Positions 2 to 19,874 are shown, counted from the first letter of the stretch. The stretch: DNA of 19,874 nucleotides from Breznakia blatticola (GCF_004365815.1 NZ_SODD01000046.1:1-19874); one strand, 5' to 3'. Numbers and translations: made by a program. Notes: generated by a model not told the origin, from the letters alone.

Positions 2-94
2 TACCTTCCTTATTTTTATATGGTAATCTTACATTTCAATGTATCATCATACATGTAACAATCTAAGTTAGGTGCGCATCGGTTGAATTAAGCC
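2..94. repeat. Left copy of a perfect 93-bp terminal inverted repeat. Probably the inward-facing end of an IS or transposon copy that continues beyond the window.
   Basis: I reverse-complemented 19782..19874 by hand and it matches 2..94 at 93/93 positions. Identity stops exactly at 94/19782. The outer end reads AAATAAGGAAGGTA, which looks like an SD, so a gene may start just outside the window. An internal ATGTAT-catc-ATACAT hairpin is present. Confidence 0.9.
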
Positions 95-8402: not shown

Positions 8403-9716
8403 TCATGATTCATCATGTAATGTAATCTCTAACTCATTTCCTGCATAATCAGAAATATAAAGTACACCTGTTACTCCATATGGACAAGTTAGAATCATTT
8501 GATTCAATGATGGATGTATCGTTATTTCTTTGTTGATACGTACTCCATTTTCATAATAGCGAATACTTTCAAAGTTAACTTGTGATGCATCATCAGAAAC
8601 ATAAATTGTATACGTTGTTCCATCAATTTCATACCCTTGAACTACCGGACTATGCATATCAAATGTAGAAATACTCACGATTCGCTCATCAATTTGTTTG
8701 CCATCCTTCATTAGAGTTACACTATAACTTCCATTACTTGCGATGACTAGACTCTCTTGATTATTCACAAGAATTTGATCATACTCCATATTGGATGTAG
8801 TTACAGTTAGTGTAATTGGCTGATTTGTCCAATTTGTTGGATGCTGAATATCTGTAATACTTGCGAGTTCTTGTACAACAGGTTGTACATCTTGTATTTC
8901 AGGTGCTACTGCTGGCTGTTTTTCTTCTTGATTTAACATGATTGCACCTACAACACCACTTACTCCAATCGTGGAAGCAAGTGCAATTTTTGCCCCTACA
9001 CCAATTCCTACTTTACTTCCTGCTGCTGCACTTCCTACACCTATTGCACTTGTTTGTAATGCGAGATTGATCACTGGAGCATGAATATTCTTTGCTGCTG
9101 AAGCATATGCAACTTGAATTAGCATTGGTGAAATTGCAAATCCCGGTAATGATTTTGCACTAATCCCCTGTTTTTCCAACATTACTTTTAGTTTACTACG
9201 AAGATGATTCAATCGTGAATATACCGTACCTTCAGGTATTTGTAAAATGTATGCAATCTCACTTACTTGAAGTTCATCATAGTATCGCAAGAGTGCAACA
9301 TTTCGTAATGACGCATTTAAAGAATGAATGCAATTATATACGATTGCTTGCATCTCTTTATTCTCTATGATTTCTTTTGCTGTTTGTTGATTTACATCTT
9401 CGAAATCTTCCACGCGAACATCATCTCCTAAATCCAGTAGTTTCTTTTTCTTACGCTCATAATCATGGCAAATATTCATTGTAATACGTTTCATCCAAGT
9501 ATAGAATGCTTCAGGACTCTCCAATGTATCAATCTTGTTGTAAATACGGATAAATACATCTTGAACAACATCTTTTGCTGTATGTTCATTATGAAAATAA
9601 TCCCATGCTGTAAAATATACATTGTTTGCATATATCTCGTACAATTTCTGAAATGCCTCTTGATCGTTTTGCTTAACTCGATTCACTAACTCTACTACTT
9701 CTCTTTTCTCTTTCAT
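8403..9716 (-). CDS. Membrane-tethered ECF-type sigma-70 family protein (sigma region 2 + region 4, TM segment, ~175-aa extracytoplasmic domain), 437 aa.
   Basis: Region 2 reads DVVQDVFIRIYNKI...FYTWMKRITMNICHDY. The region 4 HTH reads LLRYYDELQVSEIAYILQIPEGTVYSRLNHLRSKLK. A Gly/Ala-rich TM segment lies at about 8934..9002, followed by a beta-rich C-terminal domain. The ATG at 9716 follows GAGGGGTG. Confidence 0.85.
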   Translation of the reverse strand: MKEKREVVELVNRVKQNDQEAFQKLYEIYANNVYFTAWDYFHNEHTAKDVVQDVFIRIYNKIDTLESPEAFYTWMKRITMNICHDYERKKKKLLDLGDDVRVEDFEDVNQQTAKEIIENKEMQAIVYNCIHSLNASLRNVALLRYYDELQVSEIAYILQIPEGTVYSRLNHLRSKLKVMLEKQGISAKSLPGFAISPMLIQVAYASAAKNIHAPVINLALQTSAIGVGSAAAGSKVGIGVGAKIALASTIGVSGVVGAIMLNQEEKQPAVAPEIQDVQPVVQELASITDIQHPTNWTNQPITLTVTTSNMEYDQILVNNQESLVIASNGSYSVTLMKDGKQIDERIVSISTFDMHSPVVQGYEIDGTTYTIYVSDDASQVNFESIRYYENGVRINKEITIHPSLNQMILTCPYGVTGVLYISDYAGNELEITLHDES

Positions 9717-9810
9717 CGAACACCCCTCACACAAACTACCAGTTCTAAATCTTTTTCTTTCATACAATTATGTCGCTACCCAAATGGATGAAAGAATTAT
9801 GTAGTATTTG

Positions 9811-9839
9811 ACACAAAACGAGGCAAATGGTTATGCCTC
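9811..9839 (-). terminator. Weak terminator-like hairpin between the LRR gene and sigma gene 1.
   Basis: Stem GAGGCA-taaccatt-TGCCTC followed by GTTTTGTGT on the minus strand. The stem is short, so read-through is plausible. Confidence 0.4.
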
Positions 9840-9860
9840 ATTTTGCGCTGCCCATAATAT

Positions 9861-11267
9861 TTAGTTTTCTTTCTTTTTCTTAATTGCGATTGCACCAATG
9901 GCAACACCACTAATCAATAAAGTGTATAGAAGTGTATTTGTTGTATATACATCACCAGTTGCAACACTTGGTTTACTTGATAATCCTTTCGATGGATCAT
10001 TTACTGGTTCAGTTGGTGTCGGTTTAACTGGATCCACTGGTTTTACTGGATCAATTGGATCTATTGGATCAACTGGGTCCACTGGATCGATTGGATCGAC
10101 AGGGTCAACAATCGGTGGTTGTTTTATACTAACCTTGGATACGATAAACATATACTCTTCTCTTTTTGCATCATCACCAACTACATACCCATCTGGAGAA
10201 AATAGTCTTTGTGGGCGAACTTTAATTTCATCAACTCTGTAGTAATAGTTTAGTGCTTCTAGTTCAGCGGCACGTAAAATAAAACTATGTTTATCTAGTA
10301 CTTCCCAATTACAATCTTCGTGTAATTCAACTTTATTCATATTAATACCATCAATAGTTACTACATACCCATCATCTGTTTCGTCAGCAATTAAATCAAT
10401 TACATTCGACTTTATCGCAAAATCTGCTTTTGTACTTCTATCATAGAATCTGTACTGTACGGGATCACCACCAATTTCCAAAAATGGAAATTGATTTCCA
10501 CCTAATATAACTGATAAATAATCATAATTTGAATCTGCCAGAAAATACGGATTACTAAAAAGAGTATTAAGAATTCCAACCGTATGAACATCAGATAAAT
10601 CGAAATATTCATCTGTGATTGGAACACTTTCAATATCTATAGAACCAGTCACCTTAACTGCACCGTTAATACTCGTAAGTTTTGGTAATGAAGATAATGA
10701 AAATACATCAATTTCACTTTCTTCATGTAGTATCAACGATGAAAGACTATCCATCGCCCATAAATTTAATTCTCCTATTTCACGCATATGTGAAACATCA
10801 ACACTTGTAACATTAGGAACTACAGACAATGTTAAATAATACATGAAATCTAGTGCATCTAAATTTACTGTCTTAAGATCATCTGTTTCATATACTTCTA
10901 AGGCATTTAGTTTGCTTCCTTCAGGTATTACTAAATTTGAACCTTTAAAATGCCCTAAAGTAAGAGATTTTGTCTCCAGTAATTCAATTCCTTTGAAATC
11001 ACGAATATCATATTCATCGCAATCAATATCTAGATCTTTAAATGGATTATTGGTTGCAAGTTCTTCCTTTGTGATGATACCATCACTTGCAATTTCTTTA
11101 CTTTCTACATAACTTCTAAAATTTGCATCAGGAAAATTTTCCTTTGTAACATGCACATCACTATCTACAACATTCATAGGTTGTAATGTTTCCAAATGTT
11201 GTACATTTGGTTGCATGATTCCTAGTGATAATGAAATCATGGCTACTGTTTTCAATACTAAATTCAT
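9861..11267 (-). CDS. Cell-wall-anchored leucine-rich-repeat surface protein with a Pro-x-Asp stalk, 468 aa.
   Basis: It has a signal peptide (MNLVLKTVAMISLSLG...), LRR-like ~22-aa periodicity in the region L..L.L....L..VD.S, and a PVDPIDPVDPVDPIDPIDPVKPVDPVKP stalk. The C-terminus carries SVATGD, a hydrophobic segment and KKKKEN. An AGGAGGAG SD precedes the ATG at 11267. Confidence 0.85.
   Translation of the reverse strand: MNLVLKTVAMISLSLGIMQPNVQHLETLQPMNVVDSDVHVTKENFPDANFRSYVESKEIASDGIITKEELATNNPFKDLDIDCDEYDIRDFKGIELLETKSLTLGHFKGSNLVIPEGSKLNALEVYETDDLKTVNLDALDFMYYLTLSVVPNVTSVDVSHMREIGELNLWAMDSLSSLILHEESEIDVFSLSSLPKLTSINGAVKVTGSIDIESVPITDEYFDLSDVHTVGILNTLFSNPYFLADSNYDYLSVILGGNQFPFLEIGGDPVQYRFYDRSTKADFAIKSNVIDLIADETDDGYVVTIDGINMNKVELHEDCNWEVLDKHSFILRAAELEALNYYYRVDEIKVRPQRLFSPDGYVVGDDAKREEYMFIVSKVSIKQPPIVDPVDPIDPVDPVDPIDPIDPVKPVDPVKPTPTEPVNDPSKGLSSKPSVATGDVYTTNTLLYTLLISGVAIGAIAIKKKKEN
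10021..10110. repeat. Ten tandem 9-bp units (GGATCNAYT-like) encoding the P-x-D stalk.
   Basis: Units read directly from the sequence: ggtttaact ggatccact ggttttact ggatcaatt ggatctatt ggatcaact gggtccact ggatcgatt ggatcgaca gggtcaaca. Confidence 0.85.
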
Positions 11268-11464
11268 TCCTTCTCCTCCTGTTAATATTTTATTAACCAC
11301 ACAACAATCCTTAACACTTTCTTGCACACGGATAGCAACGAGATCGATTATTCATATTAAGGATCCAAGAATATTCAGTTGAATATTTCTTTCAATACAT
11401 AGACGTAGCACATTTCGCTAACCATCAAACTTTTTTTACTTTTTATCAGCTCCTTACTTTTGCA

Positions 11465-11497: not shown

Positions 11498-11717
11498 TTG
11501 TAAGGTTAAGCTATATTTGTCTAATTATACCGATATGACAAAAACTGTAATTTGGATAGACTAAAAAAATCCCTATTACATTACTTTCCATTATTGGCAC
11601 ATATACACATAGAGTACACACATACTCTACTTTCATAGTAAACAAGAAAATGAAAACTGTAAAGAAAAAGGATAGATATCTTTATTGTGATATTTTATGT
11701 ATGTTATAGATAATCCA

Positions 11718-11860
11718 GCAAAAAGAAAACAGCCTTTGCGTTCAGGGTAGCAAAAGACTGTTCTCCAACTTCGTTTATGTGTGATGGAAGTTTTGAAGGT
11801 ATGATTTTCCCTCTTGTATCACCCTTCACTTATTAGACGCTTTTTATAACGTATATCTTC
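11718..11860 (-). ncRNA. Copy A of a ~140-nt repeated two-hairpin element (candidate sRNA or 3'-UTR element), ending in an intrinsic terminator.
   Basis: It is colinear with copies B and C: GAAGAT...GTCTA.TAAG.GAAGGGT...CCTT..ACTTC[CA-rich loop]GAAGT, then a second hairpin CAGTCTTTTGC/GCAAAGGCTG (11731..11760) and TTTTCTTTTTG. It starts 16 nt after the sigma-2 stop codon. Confidence 0.45.
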
Positions 11861-11876: not shown

Positions 11877-13208
11877 TTATCCATTACCATCCCGGAGTAC
11901 CAATTTTAGCTCGTTTCCAGCATGATCATAGATGTAGACAATCTCTCTACTTCCGTATGCGCAATCAAGCGAAATGGTATTTGTTGATGGATCAAAACGA
12001 ATGTCTTTTTGAATATACTTCCCGTCTTTCTCACATACCGTTTGTGAGAAATCAATTCCGGATAGTGCATCAGCTAATGTAATCGTATATGATGTTTGGC
12101 TAATTGTATAATCAGGTACTGTTGGACTTGCAAAATCAAAGTTTTCAATACTTACTCTTTGCTCATCAATTTGTTTTCCTTCATACATCAAAGTGACTAC
12201 ATATTCACCATTATCTACAACTGTTAAATCTTGATTTCCATTAAGTAGTATTTCATCATATACATCACTTGTCGTTGTTACTTGCAAAGTGTATGCCGTA
12301 TTCGTCCAAGCCGTTGGATATGTAATATCTTTTATTTTTGCATGTTCTTTTACTGCAGTTGCTGGTTGTTGAACAATTGGATCTGGGTGATTATCTTCTA
12401 ATGGCGCACTTTGTGGTTGATTAAAAAAGTATAATCCTACTAAACTTGCTACACCAACAGTGGAAACGAGTGCTACCTTAGTTGATGCCATCCACCCAGA
12501 TTTCGTACTTGCCGTTGTTAATGCTTCTTTACTTACTCCAATAAGCGCAGCAGAAGACATAGTTACAGGAACTGAAATATGATTTGCACCAGCTTCAAAA
12601 GCAAGTTTCAATAACGTCGGAGTTAATACAAAACCTGACAAACTACGAGAAGATATCCCTTGTTCTTCAAGTACTTCTTTTAACTTTGCCTTCATACTAT
12701 GTAATCTAGAATGTACAGTTCCTTCAGGAATTTGTAATACATCAGAAATCTCAGAAACCGATAGTTCATCATAATATCGAAGAATTCCAACCGTACGAAG
12801 TGGTGTACGTAACGATTGTATCCCTTCATATATGGTTTGTTGAAGTTCTTTATTTTCTAAAATTGCGCTAGCATCTTTTTGATTGAAGTCCTCAAAGTCT
12901 TCTATTGTATATTCACTTCCCAAATCTACTACCTGGTCTTTCTTTTTATCATAGTCATAACATACATTATAGGTAATTCGAATAATCCAAGTATAAAATG
13001 CACCTGGATTATCTAATTTATGAATGTTTTTATGTATTCGAATAAACACATCTTGAACAACATCACGTGCAGTCACTTCATCATGAAAATAGTTTAGCGC
13101 TTTGAAATACACATTATTTACATACGCTCGATATAGTTCTTCAAATGCTTCTTGGTTTCCTTCTTTTACCTTCACTATCAGGTCTTTTAATTTCTCTTTA
13201 TCTTTCAT
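11877..13208 (-). CDS. Membrane-tethered ECF-type sigma-70 family protein, paralog of 8403..9716, 443 aa.
   Basis: The architecture and block-wise sequence conservation match those of 8403..9716 (DVVQDVFIRIH..., LRYYDELSVSEISDVLQIPEGTVHSRL). The TM segment lies at about 12423..12491 and the C-terminal domain is homologous. I chose the ATG at 13208, ~9 nt after AAGGAA. Confidence 0.85.
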   Translation of the reverse strand: MKDKEKLKDLIVKVKEGNQEAFEELYRAYVNNVYFKALNYFHDEVTARDVVQDVFIRIHKNIHKLDNPGAFYTWIIRITYNVCYDYDKKKDQVVDLGSEYTIEDFEDFNQKDASAILENKELQQTIYEGIQSLRTPLRTVGILRYYDELSVSEISDVLQIPEGTVHSRLHSMKAKLKEVLEEQGISSRSLSGFVLTPTLLKLAFEAGANHISVPVTMSSAALIGVSKEALTTASTKSGWMASTKVALVSTVGVASLVGLYFFNQPQSAPLEDNHPDPIVQQPATAVKEHAKIKDITYPTAWTNTAYTLQVTTTSDVYDEILLNGNQDLTVVDNGEYVVTLMYEGKQIDEQRVSIENFDFASPTVPDYTISQTSYTITLADALSGIDFSQTVCEKDGKYIQKDIRFDPSTNTISLDCAYGSREIVYIYDHAGNELKLVLRDGNG

Positions 13209-13394
13209 TTCACACATTTCCTTGATTTATTTTATTTATAACGGCATAGCGCCACTTCACTAATTATTGCTACCCTTCAAATCGAATATCATGTATCGAA
13301 TAATAGAAATTTTGTCCCCCTTAGTCTTTGATATAGCTTTAGCTTTCAATGTTGGTAAGGAGGACATTTCATTTATGTTAAGAAATATTTATGT

Positions 13395-16300
13395 TTATTT
13401 CTTTTGTAGTTTCTTGCGTGCAAATAATAAGCAAATAACAAACCCGCTCATCATTACACAAGCAAGTAATGCATTAGCTGCACTTACATCACCTGTTTTC
13501 ACACTTGGAATCACATCTAATTCCTTCACTGGAGATGTTGATGGTAATTCTGTAAATGGATCTTCAGGTTTTTCTGGTGTTGGTGGAGTTTCTTTTGGAT
13601 CTTCCACTTTCTTCGTATTATATGCTTTTACAACAATCACACCAGTTGTATCTTTTGTAACTTCAAATTCTACATTGGTTGCATCTAATACATATCCTTC
13701 AGGTGCTCCTACTTCTTTAAAGTAGTATGAACCTTCTGGTAAGTCTTTTACTTCAATGCGTCCATCTGCATTTGTTGTATATACCTCATCATTTACTTTT
13801 GTTGCATTTCCTTTTTCATCTACAACGTATAGATCAAATTCAGCACCCTCTAATGTAATCGCTTCATTACTATCTGTATCATACTTAATTAACTCTACAT
13901 CTGCAACATTTGGTGGAGTTTTCGTATTGTATGCTTTTACGATGACTTTCGTATTTGTGTTTTCATCAATTTCAAACATCACTTTTGCATCATCTAAGTC
14001 ATATCCATTTGGTGCTTTTACTTCTTTAAAGTAATATGAACCTTCAAGTAGATCTTCAACTGTGATTTTTCCATCTTTATCTGTAACATATGGAGTTGTG
14101 TTTACTTTCGTATCACCATTAGTAGCATCCACGACATATAAATCAAATTCTGCTCCTTCTAATGTTACTGATTCATTTGTATCTGCGTCATATTTAATCA
14201 GTTGAACATCTTCTGTATGTGGTGGGATTTTTTTATTATATGCTTTCACTTGCATCGTTGCTTTATCATCTTTGCTGATTGTAAATGGAATATGTTTGTC
14301 ATCTAGCTCATATCCTGAAGGAGCTTTTACTTCTTTAAAGTAATATGAACCTTCAAGTAAATCATTTACTTCGATTTCACCATACATATTTGTTGTGTAT
14401 GGTGTGCTATTCATTTTTGTATCACCATTATTATCCACTAGATATAAATCAAACTCAGCACCTTCAAGCGTAGTTGTTTCATTGCTGTCTAGATCATATT
14501 TTGTTAATTCTACACCACCAGTATATATTTTTTGGTTATACACAGTTGTATACACAACCTTTTGTGCATTTGCTTGTTCGATAACTTCAAATACAATCGG
14601 TTCATTAGACTCTACACCATTGTGTTGATAAACCGCACCGCTCATTTCATAATTTGGTGCTGCTTTTACTTCCTTCCAATAGTAGTAACCATCTTCAAGT
14701 CCACTAACAGTAATCATTCCCCAACTATTTGTAGCTCTCTTTGCAACGAGTGTATCACTACTACTTGGTGTTGTTCCATTTGCTACTTTATATAATTCGA
14801 ATTCTGCATTTGCGATAGTCAGTTGATTCTCTTCATCTTTAGTTGCTAAATCGTATTTATACAGTCCAGCACTTCCTTTTGCACCACCAATAATGGTTCC
14901 ACTATATTCGCTAAACGAAAGTTTAATCTCATTTGATTGCTCACTATTGTTGTTCCAGTATAAGTGTGCTTGATTCGTATATTCTGCACCTTCTGCCATT
15001 CCCTCAGGAAATCTTGCTTTAAAGTTTACACGGTATGCAGGAATTACATAATCAACAGCTGCTAACTCTTTATCTAAATACTCAGCTTGTTTATCTGTAT
15101 AGTAACGGTATTTTACGTCTACACCATTTTCCTCTTTTTCATACGTTAATGTCTTTAAATATGCCAAGAATTTACTATCACCGTTTGTTGGTTCTTGCGC
15201 CTTTACTGCTGGTAAATCTGTGAACTTAGCACCAACATATGATTTACTCGTTGGATCTTTATCTCCTAAATCACCAAAATAAACTATCATTGTTGTTTTA
15301 TCTAAACCGTTTGTATCTTTTTCACGATATAAAACAAGCGATTGACGATCCACATTCTCTAAAAATGCTGCCTTAAATTCATCATAGCTTAGACCAGTTG
15401 CAAATGAATAGTTATCATTTAACTTTAATGTCTCTGTACTGTCTTTATGATATTCGACTTTATCAAAGATACCTCTGGTATCTGCTCCATTTGTTTTATC
15501 TTCTGTATATAAAGCATACCATGCATATTGGCGATCTGAATATGCTCCTATTCCACCATTGTCAATATTTCGTTCTTCATAATCCAATTCATTTCCATCT
15601 TTATCTGTAGTCGCAAATACACGCATAATATGTTGAATTGAAATGGAATCAATTGTTTGGTTATAAGTCAATTCATCTTCCATGTACATTTTTGCACGTG
15701 CATTTGTAATTTTTCCAGACTCATCTTTTCTTCCATTGTATAAAGATATATTGTAATCTACACCTAAGTTAATCGTCCAACTTGTATACCCTTCTTTCTC
15801 ATAGAAGACACCTTCTTTTGAGATTTTTGTAGAATTATCATATGGATTTGCCCCAGTATCTTCAACTGGTTGTTTTTCTGGTGTTTGAATGTTACCTCCA
15901 TCAAGAATCGCATTACCATTGATTACAAGTCCTGAATCTAAACCATTTCCAATAATTTTACCTTCTGCACTTACTGATCCACCTTTAACTACATATGGAC
16001 TATTTGGATCTTCTCCAGCAGGAAGTTCTAAAATTGTAATTGCAATTGTTGTTGTTCCCGTTTTGTCATCTGTTTTAATGGTAAATTCTGCAATTTTATT
16101 ATTCGATCCATCATATAATGGAAATGATTTATCTGCAGTATCAAATACAAGTCCAAACCCTTGACCTGGTACTTTCGAATTATTAATTTCTTCAATTACA
16201 AATTTAAATGTATCGCCTTCTTTAAGCAAATTATCACCATCTGTAACATTTGTATATAAAGCTTCCCAAGCAATATTTAGTCTAACTTGACTATAGTTTT

Positions 16301-16517
16301 TTACTTGATAATTACCTTCTAGGTCAACCAAATCTTTGATATCCACAAAATTTAGTCCATTTGTTACTTCCACAGTTACCGTTGGTGCTTTAATCTTGTG
16401 ATATGCATTACCGTAATCTACATCACCTTCTGCTGCTAGTGCTGTTCCACCACTAGCAAATATCATGTTAATCATCATAAAAGCCGCTAATAAAACACTA
16501 AAAAATTTCTTCTTCAT
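13395..16517 (-). CDS. Large cell-wall-anchored adhesin: signal peptide, ~510-aa N-terminal adhesin region, four SpaA/Cna-B-like (prealbumin-fold) repeats and a sorting signal, 1040 aa.
   Basis: The signal peptide ends ...GTALA|AEG. The repeats carry LEGAEFDLY.VD...G.I.V.DL.EGSYYFKEVKAP.GY. The C-terminus carries PSVKTGD, a hydrophobic segment and RKKLQKK. An AAGGAGA SD is present. Confidence 0.9.
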   Translation of the reverse strand: MKKKFFSVLLAAFMMINMIFASGGTALAAEGDVDYGNAYHKIKAPTVTVEVTNGLNFVDIKDLVDLEGNYQVKNYSQVRLNIAWEALYTNVTDGDNLLKEGDTFKFVIEEINNSKVPGQGFGLVFDTADKSFPLYDGSNNKIAEFTIKTDDKTGTTTIAITILELPAGEDPNSPYVVKGGSVSAEGKIIGNGLDSGLVINGNAILDGGNIQTPEKQPVEDTGANPYDNSTKISKEGVFYEKEGYTSWTINLGVDYNISLYNGRKDESGKITNARAKMYMEDELTYNQTIDSISIQHIMRVFATTDKDGNELDYEERNIDNGGIGAYSDRQYAWYALYTEDKTNGADTRGIFDKVEYHKDSTETLKLNDNYSFATGLSYDEFKAAFLENVDRQSLVLYREKDTNGLDKTTMIVYFGDLGDKDPTSKSYVGAKFTDLPAVKAQEPTNGDSKFLAYLKTLTYEKEENGVDVKYRYYTDKQAEYLDKELAAVDYVIPAYRVNFKARFPEGMAEGAEYTNQAHLYWNNNSEQSNEIKLSFSEYSGTIIGGAKGSAGLYKYDLATKDEENQLTIANAEFELYKVANGTTPSSSDTLVAKRATNSWGMITVSGLEDGYYYWKEVKAAPNYEMSGAVYQHNGVESNEPIVFEVIEQANAQKVVYTTVYNQKIYTGGVELTKYDLDSNETTTLEGAEFDLYLVDNNGDTKMNSTPYTTNMYGEIEVNDLLEGSYYFKEVKAPSGYELDDKHIPFTISKDDKATMQVKAYNKKIPPHTEDVQLIKYDADTNESVTLEGAEFDLYVVDATNGDTKVNTTPYVTDKDGKITVEDLLEGSYYFKEVKAPNGYDLDDAKVMFEIDENTNTKVIVKAYNTKTPPNVADVELIKYDTDSNEAITLEGAEFDLYVVDEKGNATKVNDEVYTTNADGRIEVKDLPEGSYYFKEVGAPEGYVLDATNVEFEVTKDTTGVIVVKAYNTKKVEDPKETPPTPEKPEDPFTELPSTSPVKELDVIPSVKTGDVSAANALLACVMMSGFVICLLFARKKLQKK
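13614..14876. repeat. Intragenic tandem repeats encoding the SpaA/Cna-B-like domains. Three units have a 309-bp period and a fourth is more divergent.
   Basis: The marker string acttctttaa recurs at 13711, 14020 and 14329, which gives exact 309-bp spacing. The antisense shadow ORFs on the plus strand repeat the same peptide (YP.GA.TSLK). Confidence 0.85.
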
Positions 16518-16671
16518 AACTTGTCTCCTTATCTTTCACACATACAATTCACACACTGACCAAGTTTGTAATTCACTGCCTACTTTGCTTACACATTCAA
16601 AGTGCAACGAGAGTTCCATATCCTAGAAATCTATCTTTGAAGTCATCTACACAAACAGTTATCTATCAAAA

Positions 16672-16717
16672 CACTAAAAAAGAGTGTCTATGCTATGTTG
16701 AACAACAAGACACTCTT
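16672..16717 (-). terminator. Strong rho-independent terminator ~155 nt upstream of the large adhesin start codon.
   Basis: Perfect 10-bp stem AAGAGTGTCT/AGACACTCTT (16680..16689 and 16708..16717), followed on the minus strand by TTTTTAGTGTTTTG. Confidence 0.8.
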
Positions 16718-16834
16718 AAAAAATGTTGCCATTTTTCACCTAGAGAGTTTCCTTACCCACACATAACACACTGATATTTACACACTTTAACTCAATTTTG
16801 TATATCTTTCCCACTCCACACAAGTTCAAGTATT

Positions 16835-16976
16835 GAAAAGCAACCTTTAATTTTGAAGATTGCTTTCAGACTTCAAATTAAATGTGTGTATGGAAGTCCT
16901 GAAGTTCAACTCTTTATTTTCTTTTTTCTATGAGTATCGCTTCATTTATATAGACTTCAATTTTTCTAAAATCTTC
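16835..16976 (-). ncRNA. Copy B of the ~140-nt repeated two-hairpin element. It has its own upstream promoter, and its second hairpin lacks a U-tract.
   Basis: GAAGATTTT...GTCTAtaTAAatGAAgcgaTACTCA...GACTTC[catacacacatttaattt]GAAGTC, followed by GAAAGCAA/TTGCTTTTC. It is colinear with A and C. Confidence 0.45.
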
Positions 16977-17253: not shown

Positions 17254-19506
17254 TTATACTTTGCGTCTTCTACGAATTGCTACTAGTATACATAGAGATA
17301 TCCCACTAACAATCATCATTGCATATAGTATCGCTTTTGGACTTTGATCACCAGTACTCACTTTGCTTGAGGATACCACTGATGGATTAATAAGCAATTC
17401 CTTCTCTGGTTTCTTTGAAGGATTTGCTGGTGTCACAATTTCGGGTTGTTTAATCACTGGTGTTTCTACTACTGGTGGTTGTTCTATCATTGGATCTTCT
17501 GGTACAACAACTTCCTTCTTGTACGTATTAATAATCGTAAAATCCGTTTCTGTATTTTTTATTACTTTGGATGTATAGTTATTTGCTACTTCAAGTTCCA
17601 CAACTGTATAGGTTACCGATTTCCCATTAACTAACAACGGTAAATCATTCCATGTATATGTCCAATGATCTTGTTTTGTCACTATTGCATCAAATGTCGC
17701 AATTGCTACATGTTCATCTGTAGACTGAATCAGTTGAACCTTGATTTCATCAGGACGAATATCTAAATCATCATTCTCCCATTCTTTACTTACTGAAATG
17801 GATGTAAGTGGAAGTTTATATGTATTGGTAATTGTATAGTCATTTTTTGCATGTTCCTCAACACTTGCTGTGTAATTTTCTGCTACATGAATTTCATTTA
17901 CCGAATATGTAACTTCTTTATTTCCTTGAAAAGCAGGTAAATCATCCCATTGATATTCCCACACATTGTTGAGATCTTTTTCTATTTTTACGGTGTCCAC
18001 AATTGATGTATTTCCATCAACTGATTTTTGTAATTGCACTTCAACAAATGATGGACGTACCCACTGATCATCATCACCAGCCCACTTCTTAGTTACATGT
18101 ACACTGGTTCTTGGTACTTGATACGTATTTACAATCGTGAAATTATTAAATGAATTTTCAATTACTGTCTCAGTATAGTTATTTGGTACACTTGCTTCAT
18201 GTACTGAATATGTTACATATGTAGTACCTTCCAGCATTGGTAAATTGGTGAACTCATATTGCCATTGATTTTTTGCATTCAAATCAATTTGACCAATTTG
18301 CACTGGGCTTCCACCTTTTAGTGTTTTGTATAAATTCACAGTTACAGTTTCTGGATGTGTAATTTCTGGATCATCACTTTCCCATACTTTATGAACTTTC
18401 ACGCTAGTTGATGCATCACCAGAACCAACTCCACCAGTTACAAGACGTTGATCATATGCTTCGATTGTCCCAGATTCATAGTTATCTCCTTCAATCGTAG
18501 CTTTATTTAAATAGATTTGTGAAACTTTATTGTCTAAGATGCGTGTAGAATACTTAATATATAAAGATTTTCCATCCGCTTTCGCTTCTTGTTTTGTTGC
18601 TTCATCATTTGGGGTAAATACTCCACCGTTTTCTGGTAATGCTGTGGATGCACCACTAACAAGATTACCCAAATGTACTGTAAATCCATCACTTTGAAGT
18701 ACAAATCGCTCTGGATTTGTATTTGATGTATAGTATCCAAAATACTTCCAAGATGATGCTCCTTTATCATTCCAATCAATACGTGCGACTTGCACTGTGA
18801 TTGCTGGCTTTGTTGGATCATCTACTACAAGTTCATGTTTTCCAATAATTTCATCAATGACACTCGCATTGTAAATATCCTCAGCAGCAACATTTACACG
18901 AATCGTCCAATCGATAGTATTGGTTGTCGTATTCGCTGTTCCCCACTTTGTGATTTTTTCATCACGTGGTTCATAATTTGCTTTACCTACCCAAACATCT
19001 TGACTACTTGTATCACTGAATTGAAGTACAAGATCTTCAGCACCTGCTACTTCATTGCGATCCCATGATGCAACAACAAAAAAGTATCCTTTACGATTCT
19101 GCTTATTCTTAAAATAATCATTGAATGTAATGGTAATACTCTTATCTGATGCATTCATACTTGCATTTGCAACTACAATTTCCGTTTCATTATTTTCTGC
19201 GTCAATTTCTTTAAGCTCAAATTCAAGATTTTTCACACTTAATTGCGAAGGTAGTTGAATAACTACAGTATCTCCACTATTTACTTCATAAGTATCATCA
19301 AATGCATATTCATAATACACACGCATCGAATCATAGTATCCATAGTATTGACTATCTTCACCTGTATACGTTGTTACTTTTCCACTTACGATAAAATCGT
19401 TTTGTGAAATGCTACCTTGTGCTTCTGTAGCTAGTATTTTTCCCGTGTACGAGAACATTCCTGCAAGCACAAAAAAAACTACCACAATTTTACTTATTTT
19501 CCTCAT
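17254..19506 (-). CDS. Cna-type collagen-adhesin-like surface protein: signal peptide, collagen-binding-type A region, three Cna-B repeats, Pro-rich stalk and a sorting signal, 750 aa.
   Basis: The A region has SGDTVVIQLPSQL and IDWTIRVNV. The Cna-B repeats read V.K.W..DD...RP..V.V.L......W.Y.W.DLP......V.Y.V.E..V...Y. The C-terminus carries KVSTGD, a hydrophobic segment and RRRRKV. An AAGGAGGAA SD is present. Confidence 0.92.
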   Translation of the reverse strand: MRKISKIVVVFFVLAGMFSYTGKILATEAQGSISQNDFIVSGKVTTYTGEDSQYYGYYDSMRVYYEYAFDDTYEVNSGDTVVIQLPSQLSVKNLEFELKEIDAENNETEIVVANASMNASDKSITITFNDYFKNKQNRKGYFFVVASWDRNEVAGAEDLVLQFSDTSSQDVWVGKANYEPRDEKITKWGTANTTTNTIDWTIRVNVAAEDIYNASVIDEIIGKHELVVDDPTKPAITVQVARIDWNDKGASSWKYFGYYTSNTNPERFVLQSDGFTVHLGNLVSGASTALPENGGVFTPNDEATKQEAKADGKSLYIKYSTRILDNKVSQIYLNKATIEGDNYESGTIEAYDQRLVTGGVGSGDASTSVKVHKVWESDDPEITHPETVTVNLYKTLKGGSPVQIGQIDLNAKNQWQYEFTNLPMLEGTTYVTYSVHEASVPNNYTETVIENSFNNFTIVNTYQVPRTSVHVTKKWAGDDDQWVRPSFVEVQLQKSVDGNTSIVDTVKIEKDLNNVWEYQWDDLPAFQGNKEVTYSVNEIHVAENYTASVEEHAKNDYTITNTYKLPLTSISVSKEWENDDLDIRPDEIKVQLIQSTDEHVAIATFDAIVTKQDHWTYTWNDLPLLVNGKSVTYTVVELEVANNYTSKVIKNTETDFTIINTYKKEVVVPEDPMIEQPPVVETPVIKQPEIVTPANPSKKPEKELLINPSVVSSSKVSTGDQSPKAILYAMMIVSGISLCILVAIRRRRKV
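17518..18411. repeat. Three tandem Cna-B domain-encoding repeats (~97-100 codons each).
   Basis: Protein repeats at aa 366-463, 467-563 and 568-663, counted by hand from the start at 19506. Confidence 0.75.
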
Positions 19507-19573
19507 GGTTCCTCCTTATAAAACACACTTTGGTTTCACACACCAATTGTCTCTTTCAAGACTCAGCGAGGCT

Positions 19574-19603
19574 ATTATACTATGTTCATTTCAATTTTTC
19601 CAA
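19574..19603 (-). promoter_or_regulatory. Candidate sigma-A promoter of the Cna-type adhesin gene (TGGAAA-N17-TATAAT).
   Basis: A perfect TATAAT lies on the minus strand at 19574..19579 and TGGAAA at 19597..19602. This is ~68 nt upstream of the ATG and downstream of the element C terminator. Confidence 0.55.
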
Positions 19604-19621
19604 TGTAATAATATTTTTCTT

Positions 19622-19758
19622 TAAAACAAAAAGAAAAGCAATCCAGGTAGCATATGGATTGCTTTTCAAACTTCTTGGTGTGTGTGTGAAGTCCAAAAGG
19701 ATAACTCATATTGAGTACCCTTTCACCTTAATAGACTCTTTGAATAAAGAAAATCTTC
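19622..19758 (-). ncRNA. Copy C of the ~140-nt repeated two-hairpin element, ending in a strong intrinsic terminator.
   Basis: GAAGATTTT...GTCTAtTAAGgtGAAagGGTACTCA...GGACTTC[acacacacaccaa]GAAGTTT, followed by a perfect 13-bp stem GAAAAGCAATCCA/TGGATTGCTTTTC and TTTTTGTTTT. Confidence 0.5.
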
Positions 19759-19781: not shown

Positions 19782-19874
19782 GGCTTAATTCAACCGATGC
19801 GCACCTAACTTAGATTGTTACATGTATGATGATACATTGAAATGTAAGATTACCATATAAAAATAAGGAAGGTA
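19782..19874. repeat. Right copy of the perfect 93-bp terminal inverted repeat.
   Basis: Exact reverse complement of 2..94. It abuts AT-rich non-coding DNA whose sequence aligns with the promoter region of element B. Confidence 0.9.

Follow-up and report, generated by a model that had tools for sequence, protein, structure and literature searches.

A family of CA-loop hairpin RNAs with predicted pairing to UG boxes in adhesin and sigma factor leaders of gut Erysipelotrichaceae

Along a stretch of 19,874 nucleotides (nt) from Breznakia blatticola (GCF_004365815.1, NZ_SODD01000046.1:1-19874; hereafter the window), genes for surface adhesins and for sigma factors of the extracytoplasmic function (ECF) type are interspersed with three copies, elements A, B, and C, of a small hairpin RNA. 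The minus strand carries every gene of the window, and all window features described below are read on that strand. The elements belong to a small hairpin RNA family that is found in two gut lineages of the Erysipelotrichaceae and that matches no described RNA family. Each copy holds a CACACA motif in a predicted loop, and the leaders of the adhesin and sigma genes carry a complementary motif, the UG box, at or near the ribosome-binding site. Established here are the family and its fold, the conservation of both the family and the UG boxes, and a complementarity above that of controls. What might these RNAs do? The reading that we favor, with moderate confidence, is that A, B, and C, together with copy D of a second Breznakia locus and copies M1 to M3 of Erysipelotrichaceae bacterium MTC7, are paralogous small structured RNA genes whose CA loop pairs with UG boxes to mask ribosome-binding regions. 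A local RNA switch for the production of surface proteins is the family's probable role.

Over about 150 nt, elements A, B, and C can be aligned with one another, and they represent three copies of a unit of about 105 to 115 nt. The order of parts is a T-rich segment with a promoter-like GAAGAT-N15/16-GTCTA motif, a 5' hairpin, a CA-loop hairpin, and an intrinsic terminator consisting of a stem and a U-tract. The 5' hairpin has a GAAGG/CCUUC-like base and is variable among copies in sequence and loop; the CA-loop hairpin takes the form ACUUC..CACACA..GAAGU, with a loop of 13 to 18 nt. In element C, the promoter-like motif occupies 19732..19758 (GAAGAT at 19758-19753, a 16-nt spacer, and GTCTA at 19736-19732), and the RNA body, 19622..19726, has a predicted fold of -34.1 kcal/mol (z = -5.6) and scores 61.1 bits with the covariance model of the family. 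It comprises the 5' hairpin (19724-19695), the CA-loop hairpin (19694-19668, loop 19687-19675), and the terminator (19667-19633), with a U-tract reaching to 19622. Element B (16830..16976; z = -3.8; 63.1 bits) has its promoter-like motif at 16976-16951, an RNA at about 16945-16830, the CA loop CAUACACACAUUUAAUUU at 16892-16875, and a terminator at 16867-16836. Element A (11716..11860; z = -3.4; 75 bits) begins 17 nt past the stop codon of the gene for the first of the two sigma factors of the window, sigma-1, and copy M3 of MTC7 is in the equivalent position; its promoter-like motif lies at 11860-11834, its RNA at about 11828-11716, and its CA loop, CAUCACACAUAAAC, at 11786-11773. The motif GAAG-N16-20-GTCTA has three matches in the window, one ahead of each element (0.41 expected), and the hairpin signature ACTTC..ACACA..GAAG also occurs three times, as against none in 200 shuffles.

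Other identities for the elements were considered and rejected. Small encoded peptides do not fit, as the units, read from their sequence, contain no conserved open reading frame (ORF) or Shine-Dalgarno sequence. CsrA-type GGA loops in the 5' hairpin are confined to A and M3, and the loop sizes and motifs do not suit ANTAR, RAT, or TRAP-type protein-binding leaders.

How distinct is the family, and how far does it extend? Rfam 15 gave no match at E <= 1 over the whole window under permissive thresholds, and Rfam scans of small regions returned scores of 20 bits or below, far under gathering scores. A literature search found no description of a CA-loop small RNA or of the membrane-anchored sigma type described below. 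The MTC7 locus (L004) carries its three copies in syntenic places, two upstream of a SpaA adhesin and one right after the sigma gene, and copy D (locus L168) lies directly upstream of a Cna-type adhesin. Each Breznakia and MTC7 locus contains the hairpin signature three times, and 161 unrelated loci lack it. With the covariance model, the family scores 56 to 75 bits; the next best hit in 718 kb scores 20 bits, and everything else reaches at most about 27 bits, the top score there belonging to the antisense strand of copy D. The same three hairpins are predicted in six of the seven distinct copies (z = -3.4 to -5.6), and in the seventh, M1 (z = -6.5), the terminator takes up the 3' arm of the middle hairpin. 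CACACA is invariant and predicted to be unpaired in all seven, and ACUUC is also invariant. Within the stems, both sides have changed in 7 of 17 pairs, a covariation score higher than that of all 500 shuffles and of every register shift. When MTC7 is compared with two strains that are 98% identical to it, no substitution is found in its three RNA bodies (335 nt), whereas the surrounding intergenic DNA has 32 differences in 1,303 nt, three of them in the M3 promoter spacer. Selection on the MTC7 RNA bodies is visible at this short distance.

Promoter-like motifs stand ahead of all eight units, that is, A, B, C, D, M1 to M3, and a related unit in the B. blatticola LRR leader; the motif was found at no other intergenic site in these loci and not ahead of the adhesin or sigma coding genes. 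An ECF-type promoter has a -35 element resembling AAC and, about 16 nt away, a -10 element resembling CGTC. The M3 promoter, GAACCT-N16-CGTCTT, has the textbook ECF form, A and the LRR-leader unit have GAAGAT or GAAGTT-N15-CGTCTA, and the remaining units have GAAGAT and GTCTA, except for M1, with GAAGCA and TCTAT. A terminator (stem plus U-tract) closes seven of the eight units, the LRR-leader unit having none. We infer from sequence that the units are transcribed as separate RNAs. Computationally, they display the features of a terminator-ended, loop-seed small RNA: a bounding promoter and terminator, an unpaired seed in a covarying scaffold, and conserved target sites.

Those target sites are the UG boxes. 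In L001, a locus of Breznakia sp. GCA_029893515 with 96 to 98% nucleotide identity to the window (an Erysipelotrichaceae chromosomal segment), a sense-strand UGUGUG or GUGUGA box lies at -60 to +3 of all five adhesin and sigma genes and of none of nine other genes. Boxes also lie ahead of MTC7 SpaA, MTC7 sigma, Breznakia sigma-3, B. blatticola sigma-2 and LRR, and a further Breznakia adhesin, adhesin-2, and the orientation is sense in all cases. Overall, every adhesin gene and every membrane-anchored ECF sigma gene in the comparison has such a box no more than 40 nt from its start codon, and almost no neighboring gene does. In four of the five sigma leaders, the box falls between the Shine-Dalgarno sequence and the AUG. 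The leaders concerned read ...AAGGAAAUGUGUGAAAUG (Breznakia sigma-1), ...AAGGAAUGUGUGACAUG (MTC7 sigma), ...AUGUGUGAAGGUGUGUAUG (Breznakia sigma-3), and ...AAGGAUGUGUGAUGAUG (B. blatticola sigma-2). In the window, the sigma-1 gene (13208-11877) has its box, AUGUGUGA, at 13210..13217, between the Shine-Dalgarno sequence AAGGAA and the true start at 13208. The box of sigma-2 (9716-8403, true start codon 9716), UGUGUGA at 9727..9733, overlaps the Shine-Dalgarno sequence GAGGGG. The sigma-1 start at 13208 (MKDKEKL) is inferred from homologues. A start at 13217 was rejected, as the MKDKEKL start is conserved and the upstream AUG of sigma-3 is out of frame, for which reason the UG-box motif of sigma-3 is not coding. 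At 13217-13206, the box forms an in-frame upstream AUG, AUGUGUGAAAUG, and because of it mechanical ORF calling places sigma-1 three codons early.

The surface-protein leaders carry their boxes farther upstream. The Cna-type adhesin gene (19506-17254, ATG at 19506) has two: UG box 1 (19546-19537), with a predicted probability of being unpaired of 0.76 to 0.90, is shared equally between the 5' arm and the loop of a leader hairpin, UUGGU-GUGUGAA-ACCAA (19530..19546), and a second box, GUGUGU (19523..19528), precedes the Shine-Dalgarno sequence AAGGAGG (about 19517-19511) by about 6 nt. The leader of the large, SpaA-domain adhesin gene (16517-13395) contains, at 16534..16564, CUUGGUCAGUGUGUGAA (16564-16548) and UAUGUGUGAAA (16544-16534), then the Shine-Dalgarno sequence and the start at 16517. 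The only alignable block between the Breznakia and MTC7 SpaA leaders is a run of 16 identical nt, AAUUGUAUGUGUGAAA, just before the Shine-Dalgarno sequence. The gene for an LRR-like surface protein (11267-9861, true start codon 11267) has UGUGUGG at 11297..11303. Folding predicts little structure in the leaders: the boxes are largely accessible, and the Shine-Dalgarno sequences are for the most part free.

UG motifs also occur between the elements and the genes. From element B toward the SpaA adhesin runs a GU-rich stretch (16670..16829) with four GUGUG motifs and a second terminator-like hairpin at about 16715-16670. MTC7 has an equivalent between M2 and SpaA (L004 7120-7260); such a stretch, with its four or five UGUGUG-like motifs and the terminator-like hairpin after them, might serve as a decoy or sponge, or else as a further attenuator. 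A hairpin read from the sequence, GUAGAGUA-UGUGUG-UACUCUAU (11609..11630), lies about 95 nt past the terminator of element A; it presents UGUGUG as a hexaloop and is a candidate kissing partner for CA loops. As a side observation, the leader of a VWA-domain surface-protein gene in L001 (1040-1096) has a near-UG box, AAAUGUGUAGUGUGUUAAUGAGGAGG, with an 8-nt match to loop B.

An earlier, sequence-only reading of the window had proposed that the loop of element C is a perfect 10-nt antisense match to the Cna leader, and this was borne out. Plus-strand ttggtgtgtg at 19675-19684 corresponds to minus-strand RNA CACACACCAA, the exact complement of UUGGUGUGUG (plus-strand cacacaccaa, 19537-19546), the 3' end of which lies 31 nt before the Cna ATG. 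The whole of CACACACCAA (19675..19684) falls inside the predicted 13-nt loop ACACACACACCAA (19687-19675) of the middle hairpin. The two shorter pairings that had been listed are likewise present, one of 8 nt between UCACACAU of the A loop and AUGUGUGA of a sigma leader (13217-13210), 2 nt before the true start at 13208, and one of 7 nt between CACACAU of the B loop and AUGUGUG of the large-adhesin leader. There are also longer matches than those, each of 9 nt, between A and the SpaA leader (UAUGUGUGA) and between B and the sigma-1 leader (AAAUGUGUG).

Taken singly, the 10-mer match is suggestive and modestly significant, not decisive (P = 0.012 when the leaders are shuffled by dinucleotide, 0.053 when the loops are shuffled, and 0.0005 under mononucleotide shuffling), because both partners are (CA)n/(UG)n-like. 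Might the complementarity, then, be chance or simple-sequence biology, with short (CA)n and (GT)n tracts, such as the slippage tracts of phase variation, matching by accident? Both partners are indeed dinucleotide repeats, GTGTG is not enriched in the window (33 found, 38 expected), and P values for single pairs are around 0.01 to 0.05. We nevertheless consider this explanation very improbable. The tracts are short (3 to 5 units), their lengths are identical among the window and L001 to L003 and again among MTC7, L172, and L173, with no repeat-number polymorphism, and they are concentrated in conserved structured-RNA loops and in the ribosome-binding sites of one functional gene set, where they are kept between lineages with otherwise unalignable intergenic DNA. 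The significance of the pairing comes from the recurrence of the pattern and its conservation.

That recurrence can be measured in several ways. (i) Over three loci, the longest perfect loop complement is 7 to 11 nt in 10 adhesin and sigma leaders and 4 to 9 nt in 38 neighbors (Mann-Whitney P = 3e-6, with samples that are not fully independent). (ii) MTC7 provides an independent 10-nt match, between M3 and the sigma leader AUGUGUGACA at -9 to +1, abutting the start codon (P = 0.003), as well as a 9-nt match in its SpaA leader. (iii) Some matches extend beyond the core in a partner-specific manner: C adds ACCAA/UUGGU in its matches to Cna and SpaA, and M3 adds UGU/ACA in its match to MTC7 sigma. 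(iv) Duplex energies, on which the sequence-only reading had staked its proposal, are stronger for adhesin and sigma leaders than for other genes and for shuffled leaders: with the best loop, the five adhesin and sigma leaders reach -11.6 to -21.9 kcal/mol and seven other window genes -5.2 to -13.3 kcal/mol. When 19.8 kb is scanned with loop C, the SpaA (-21.9 kcal/mol), Cna (-17.3 kcal/mol), and sigma-2 (-16.6 kcal/mol; fourth best) leaders make up three of the top four sites; the best duplex sites of loops A and B are in the GU-rich stretch at 16829-16670. (v) In cofolds of the full-length RNAs, the intermolecular helix always forms on the CA loop and the UG box, and UG box 1 of the Cna leader pairs with nt 43-52 of element C. 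Most pairs show a net gain of -8 to -12 kcal/mol (the weakest, M2 with MTC7 SpaA, being -4.0 kcal/mol), compared with -4 to -6 kcal/mol for most shuffled-leader sets. The proposal that CA loops pair with GU motifs beside the Shine-Dalgarno sequences and so modulate the adhesin and sigma mRNAs is supported, at the level of predicted pairing, by every computational test run.

Could the loops and boxes instead be independent sites, the UG box acting as an operator or an RNA-binding-protein site, say for the neighboring OmpR-type response regulator, or as a translational enhancer and the CA loops binding some other partner, so that their complementarity is incidental? Direct repeats of boxes 10 to 13 nt apart in the Cna, SpaA, and sigma-3 leaders would suit a protein-binding site, and the locus encodes an OmpR-family regulator and a histidine kinase. 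We rate this alternative as improbable, for every box has the sense orientation and lies past any plausible promoter, and its placement relative to Shine-Dalgarno sequences and start codons, including the overlap in sigma-2, is a position at the RNA level. In addition, adjacent RNAs of the two lineages present the exact complement of the box in their conserved loops, and the extensions of C and M3 are lineage specific.

Several observations weigh against the reading of the units as small RNA genes that mask ribosome-binding regions, and some of them point toward regulation within a single transcript. Some copies resemble 5' leaders of the downstream adhesin gene, and loop and box could for this reason pair intramolecularly. 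On such a cis leader or attenuator model, which we regard as unlikely though able to coexist with trans action, the units would be promoter-proximal parts of ECF-driven adhesin transcripts and the short RNAs would be by-products; the terminator would attenuate, and in read-through RNA, the CA loop would pair with the downstream UG box, altering translation or 5'-end stability. After every unit, a UG box does follow 10 to 100 nt past the terminator on the same strand, and the U-tract is interrupted in the terminators of B, M2, M3, and D. Between copy D and the start of its adhesin there are 55 nt and no recognizable promoter, sigma-70 type included, and the minimum-energy fold of the read-through RNA of this copy pairs UUCaCAUACACA with UGUGUAUGGAA across the terminator, joining the CA loop to the UG box just past it. 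The B. blatticola LRR leader has a promoter motif, a CA-loop hairpin, and a UG box with no terminator among them. Because of these features of copy D and of the LRR leader, a cis component alongside trans action is plausible.

As a complete explanation, the cis model meets several difficulties. The boxes conserved best belong to sigma ribosome-binding sites, upstream of which the same transcript has no CA element, and M3 and A lie downstream of the sigma genes that they match. Elements C and A have strong terminators, and C is followed by the best sigma-70-like promoter of the window (19574..19603; TTGGAA, an 18-nt spacer, and TATAAT), located between its terminator and the Cna gene. This promoter has the joint top score of the window scan, 10/12, and its spacing is kept in the close relative L001 because indels cancel out. 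The UG box cannot control termination because it is transcribed after the terminator. As to a riboswitch or protein-dependent attenuator leader, which would combine a conserved sensor domain with mutually exclusive terminator and antiterminator pairings, no Rfam aptamer was found, the 5' hairpin is variable, and the folds showed no antiterminator alternative; copy D and the B. blatticola leader do occupy leader positions.

The remaining points that count against the small RNA reading are more general. The statistics of single pairs are modest (P = 0.003 to 0.09). The best predicted partner of loop C is the SpaA leader and not the Cna leader, a caveat for the pairing first proposed. The core of the two low-complexity motifs never varies, so the support consists of conservation and not of compensatory change between loop and target. 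The promoter and terminator calls were made by consensus only, and sampling covers two genus-level lineages and seven distinct copies, with orthologues and paralogues that are not independent. Finally, UG boxes are present in two leaders that belong to neither adhesin nor sigma genes, those of the MTC7 periplasmic-binding-protein gene (two boxes, L004 12200-12256) and of the L168 nitroreductase gene (GUGUGUGUG, 19660-19702), which may be further targets or background.

If the units are indeed small RNA genes, how would they work? Trans action would be needed at least for the sigma targets, because the best target of M3, the ribosome-binding site of MTC7 sigma, lies upstream of M3 itself and because the sigma-3 box is 4.6 kb from copy D. 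An ECF sigma factor would transcribe the CA-loop RNA from the adjoining promoter. The factors used at these promoters would be the locus's own ECF sigmas, and both this dependence and a feedback are suggested by the ECF architecture of the promoters, the two to three sigma paralogues nearby, and the one RNA that always lies just past a sigma stop codon. The CA loop would then nucleate on the UG box, with a loop-loop contact in the Cna leader. In sigma mRNAs, it would meet the box between the Shine-Dalgarno sequence and the AUG or overlapping the former, and in surface-protein mRNAs (Cna-type, SpaA-type, and LRR-like) 5 to 25 nt upstream of the Shine-Dalgarno sequence. Most likely, pairing would keep the 30S subunit from binding and repress translation, and mRNA decay might be affected as well. 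The sign of regulation is more likely to be repression because the sigma boxes are at -17 to -3 and because, according to the predicted folds, the Shine-Dalgarno sequences are not sequestered beforehand. If the locus sigmas read the promoter, a sigma factor would drive a small RNA that represses the sigma factor itself, a negative feedback, and the adhesins as well, and the circuit would be the post-transcriptional repressor arm of an envelope-type sigma response. A fuller version, which we put forward as doubtful, has membrane-anchored ECF sigmas driving CA-loop RNAs that are in part prematurely terminated adhesin leaders. These would act in trans on sigma and adhesin UG boxes and in cis in read-through transcripts, and the GU-rich stretches downstream of B and M2 would be decoys.

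The sigma factors themselves are unusual. The paralogues (13208-11877 and 9716-8403 in the window and 10001-11305 in L168) are each about 435 to 445 amino acids long, with a sigma domain at residues 1-190, one hydrophobic helix at about 245-268, and a beta-rich C-terminal domain (predicted local distance difference test [pLDDT] score of about 80). They appear to be membrane-anchored sigma factors with an extracytoplasmic C-terminal domain, as judged from this predicted layout. The AlphaFold model of the sigma factor has low overall confidence (pLDDT of 55). In family scoring, the sigma factors of the locus fall into the ECF family, with SigW closest, though below equivalog cutoffs, and the MTC7 sigma factor is 57% identical to sigma-1. 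Among 5.8 billion proteins, there are five clusters of the membrane-anchored type, all from Breznakia or MTC7-like genomes, and loci L168, L171, L172, and L173 were added from cluster members. Genome-wide and metagenome-wide scans with the sigma alignment returned generic ECF sigma factors only, MTC7 excepted. Protein searches with the sigma factor and the SpaA adhesin found matches confined to Breznakia, MTC7, and a few Logan contigs, and comparative depth is limited for this reason. The second Breznakia adhesin-sigma locus (L168) consists of the Cna-type adhesin-2 followed by the third sigma paralogue, sigma-3; between the two lies a conserved 60-amino-acid ORF (9676-9858, also in L005 and L167) that has no family match in gene tables.

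The three surface proteins of the window share another trait. The C termini of the Cna, SpaA, and LRR-like proteins (17254-17430, 13395-13570, and 9861-10030) have an xVxTGD motif (SKVSTGD, PSVKTGD, and PSVATGD, respectively), followed in all three by a hydrophobic helix and a Lys/Arg tail. Judged from these residues, the ending is a non-LPXTG variant of a sorting signal; there is no sortase gene within the window. Downstream of sigma-2 are the genes for the OmpR-type response regulator and then the histidine kinase, followed by those for a DUF6440 protein, an ABC/FtsX transporter, and a P-type ATPase. The ends of the window (2-94 and 19782-19874) form a perfect 93-nt inverted repeat. The right-hand repeat replaces the sequence that L001 has upstream of element C, where that locus carries the VWA-domain surface-protein gene, and the left-hand repeat truncates a PfkB kinase gene after about 128 codons. 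A search of plasmids with the 93-nt repeat gave no match. The window looks like a contig between two inverted repeat copies, possibly insertion sequence-like, or like an assembly artifact.

How do the CA-loop RNAs compare with known regulators? In Gram-negative bacteria, MicA, RybB, and MicL form a sigma-E-driven repressor arm that shuts down abundant envelope proteins and feeds back on sigma activity, using 5'-end seeds and Hfq against outer-membrane protein mRNAs. The CA-loop RNAs would resemble them as the repressor arm of an envelope ECF sigma response, a likeness subject to their putative dependence on the sigma factor. They differ in that they are found in Gram-positive-type Erysipelotrichaceae, have a loop seed and sortase-type adhesin targets, and directly complement the sigma mRNA itself. 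Among the Firmicutes, the multicopy loop-seed RNAs LhrC1-5 of Listeria, the csRNAs of Streptococcus, and FasX (the last acting on a pilus mRNA of S. pyogenes) end in a terminator, expose unpaired motifs, and pair near the Shine-Dalgarno sequence of surface-protein or adhesin mRNAs. They are controlled by envelope-sensing regulators, and their seeds are C/U-rich anti-Shine-Dalgarno sequences (UCCC, CCUCC). The design of sibling small RNAs with a terminator and a conserved unpaired motif for surface-protein mRNAs is shared. The CA-loop RNAs, however, use a CACACA seed, target a separate UG box beside the Shine-Dalgarno sequence, and match no Rfam family.

Three further systems are close in one respect or another. 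AfaR of pathogenic Escherichia coli is a small RNA of an adhesin cluster that is transcribed from an ECF (sigma-E) promoter and pairs with an adhesin/invasin 5' untranslated region, lowering expression (PMC3664800). It shares with the CA-loop RNAs the adhesin-cluster location and would share with them the transcription from an ECF-type promoter and the pairing with an adhesin leader of the same cluster. AfaR is, however, a Gram-negative RNA that depends on Hfq and RNase E, exists as a single copy, and is antisense to a 3' untranslated region (PMC3664800), whereas the CA-loop RNAs are multicopy, have a CA-repeat loop seed, and also match sigma ribosome-binding sites; there is no similarity of sequence or structure between them. 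The GU-rich seed of GcvB pairs with a CA-rich enhancer just upstream of the Shine-Dalgarno sequence and silences translation with the start codon uncovered (PMC3879156). The likeness lies in GU-rich/CA-rich pairing upstream of the Shine-Dalgarno sequence, and the polarity is reversed, with the GU seed in GcvB and the CA motif in the mRNA; GcvB is also enterobacterial and Hfq dependent. In the pilus islet 1 of Streptococcus pneumoniae, srn135 is processed from the leader of the pilus adhesin gene rrgA, is reported to influence the expression of the pilus in cis as well as in trans, and stabilizes a regulator's mRNA (PMC8465756). As a leader-derived RNA, srn135 parallels the arrangement of copy D and copy E; it lacks a CA/UG motif pair and is not tied to any ECF sigma factor.

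Overall, the CACACA loop and the UGUGUG box at the ribosome-binding site amount to a proposed code for adhesin production in the Erysipelotrichaceae that is both concrete and testable. It is tied to membrane-anchored ECF sigma factors of an unusual family with a very narrow distribution, and the reach of the finding is limited by the narrow distribution of the code itself. The Erysipelotrichaceae are, to our knowledge, a gut lineage with almost no known RNA regulators. If confirmed, the pairing would carry a scheme best known from Gram-negative bacteria, in which an ECF sigma factor has a small-RNA repressor arm, over to sortase-dependent surface proteins, and it would add a case in which a sigma factor's own translation is the direct target of a small RNA. 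Were the full circuit true, it would represent the first ECF-driven small-RNA arm in this bacterial lineage, built on a dual leader and small-RNA design with a CA:UG kissing code.

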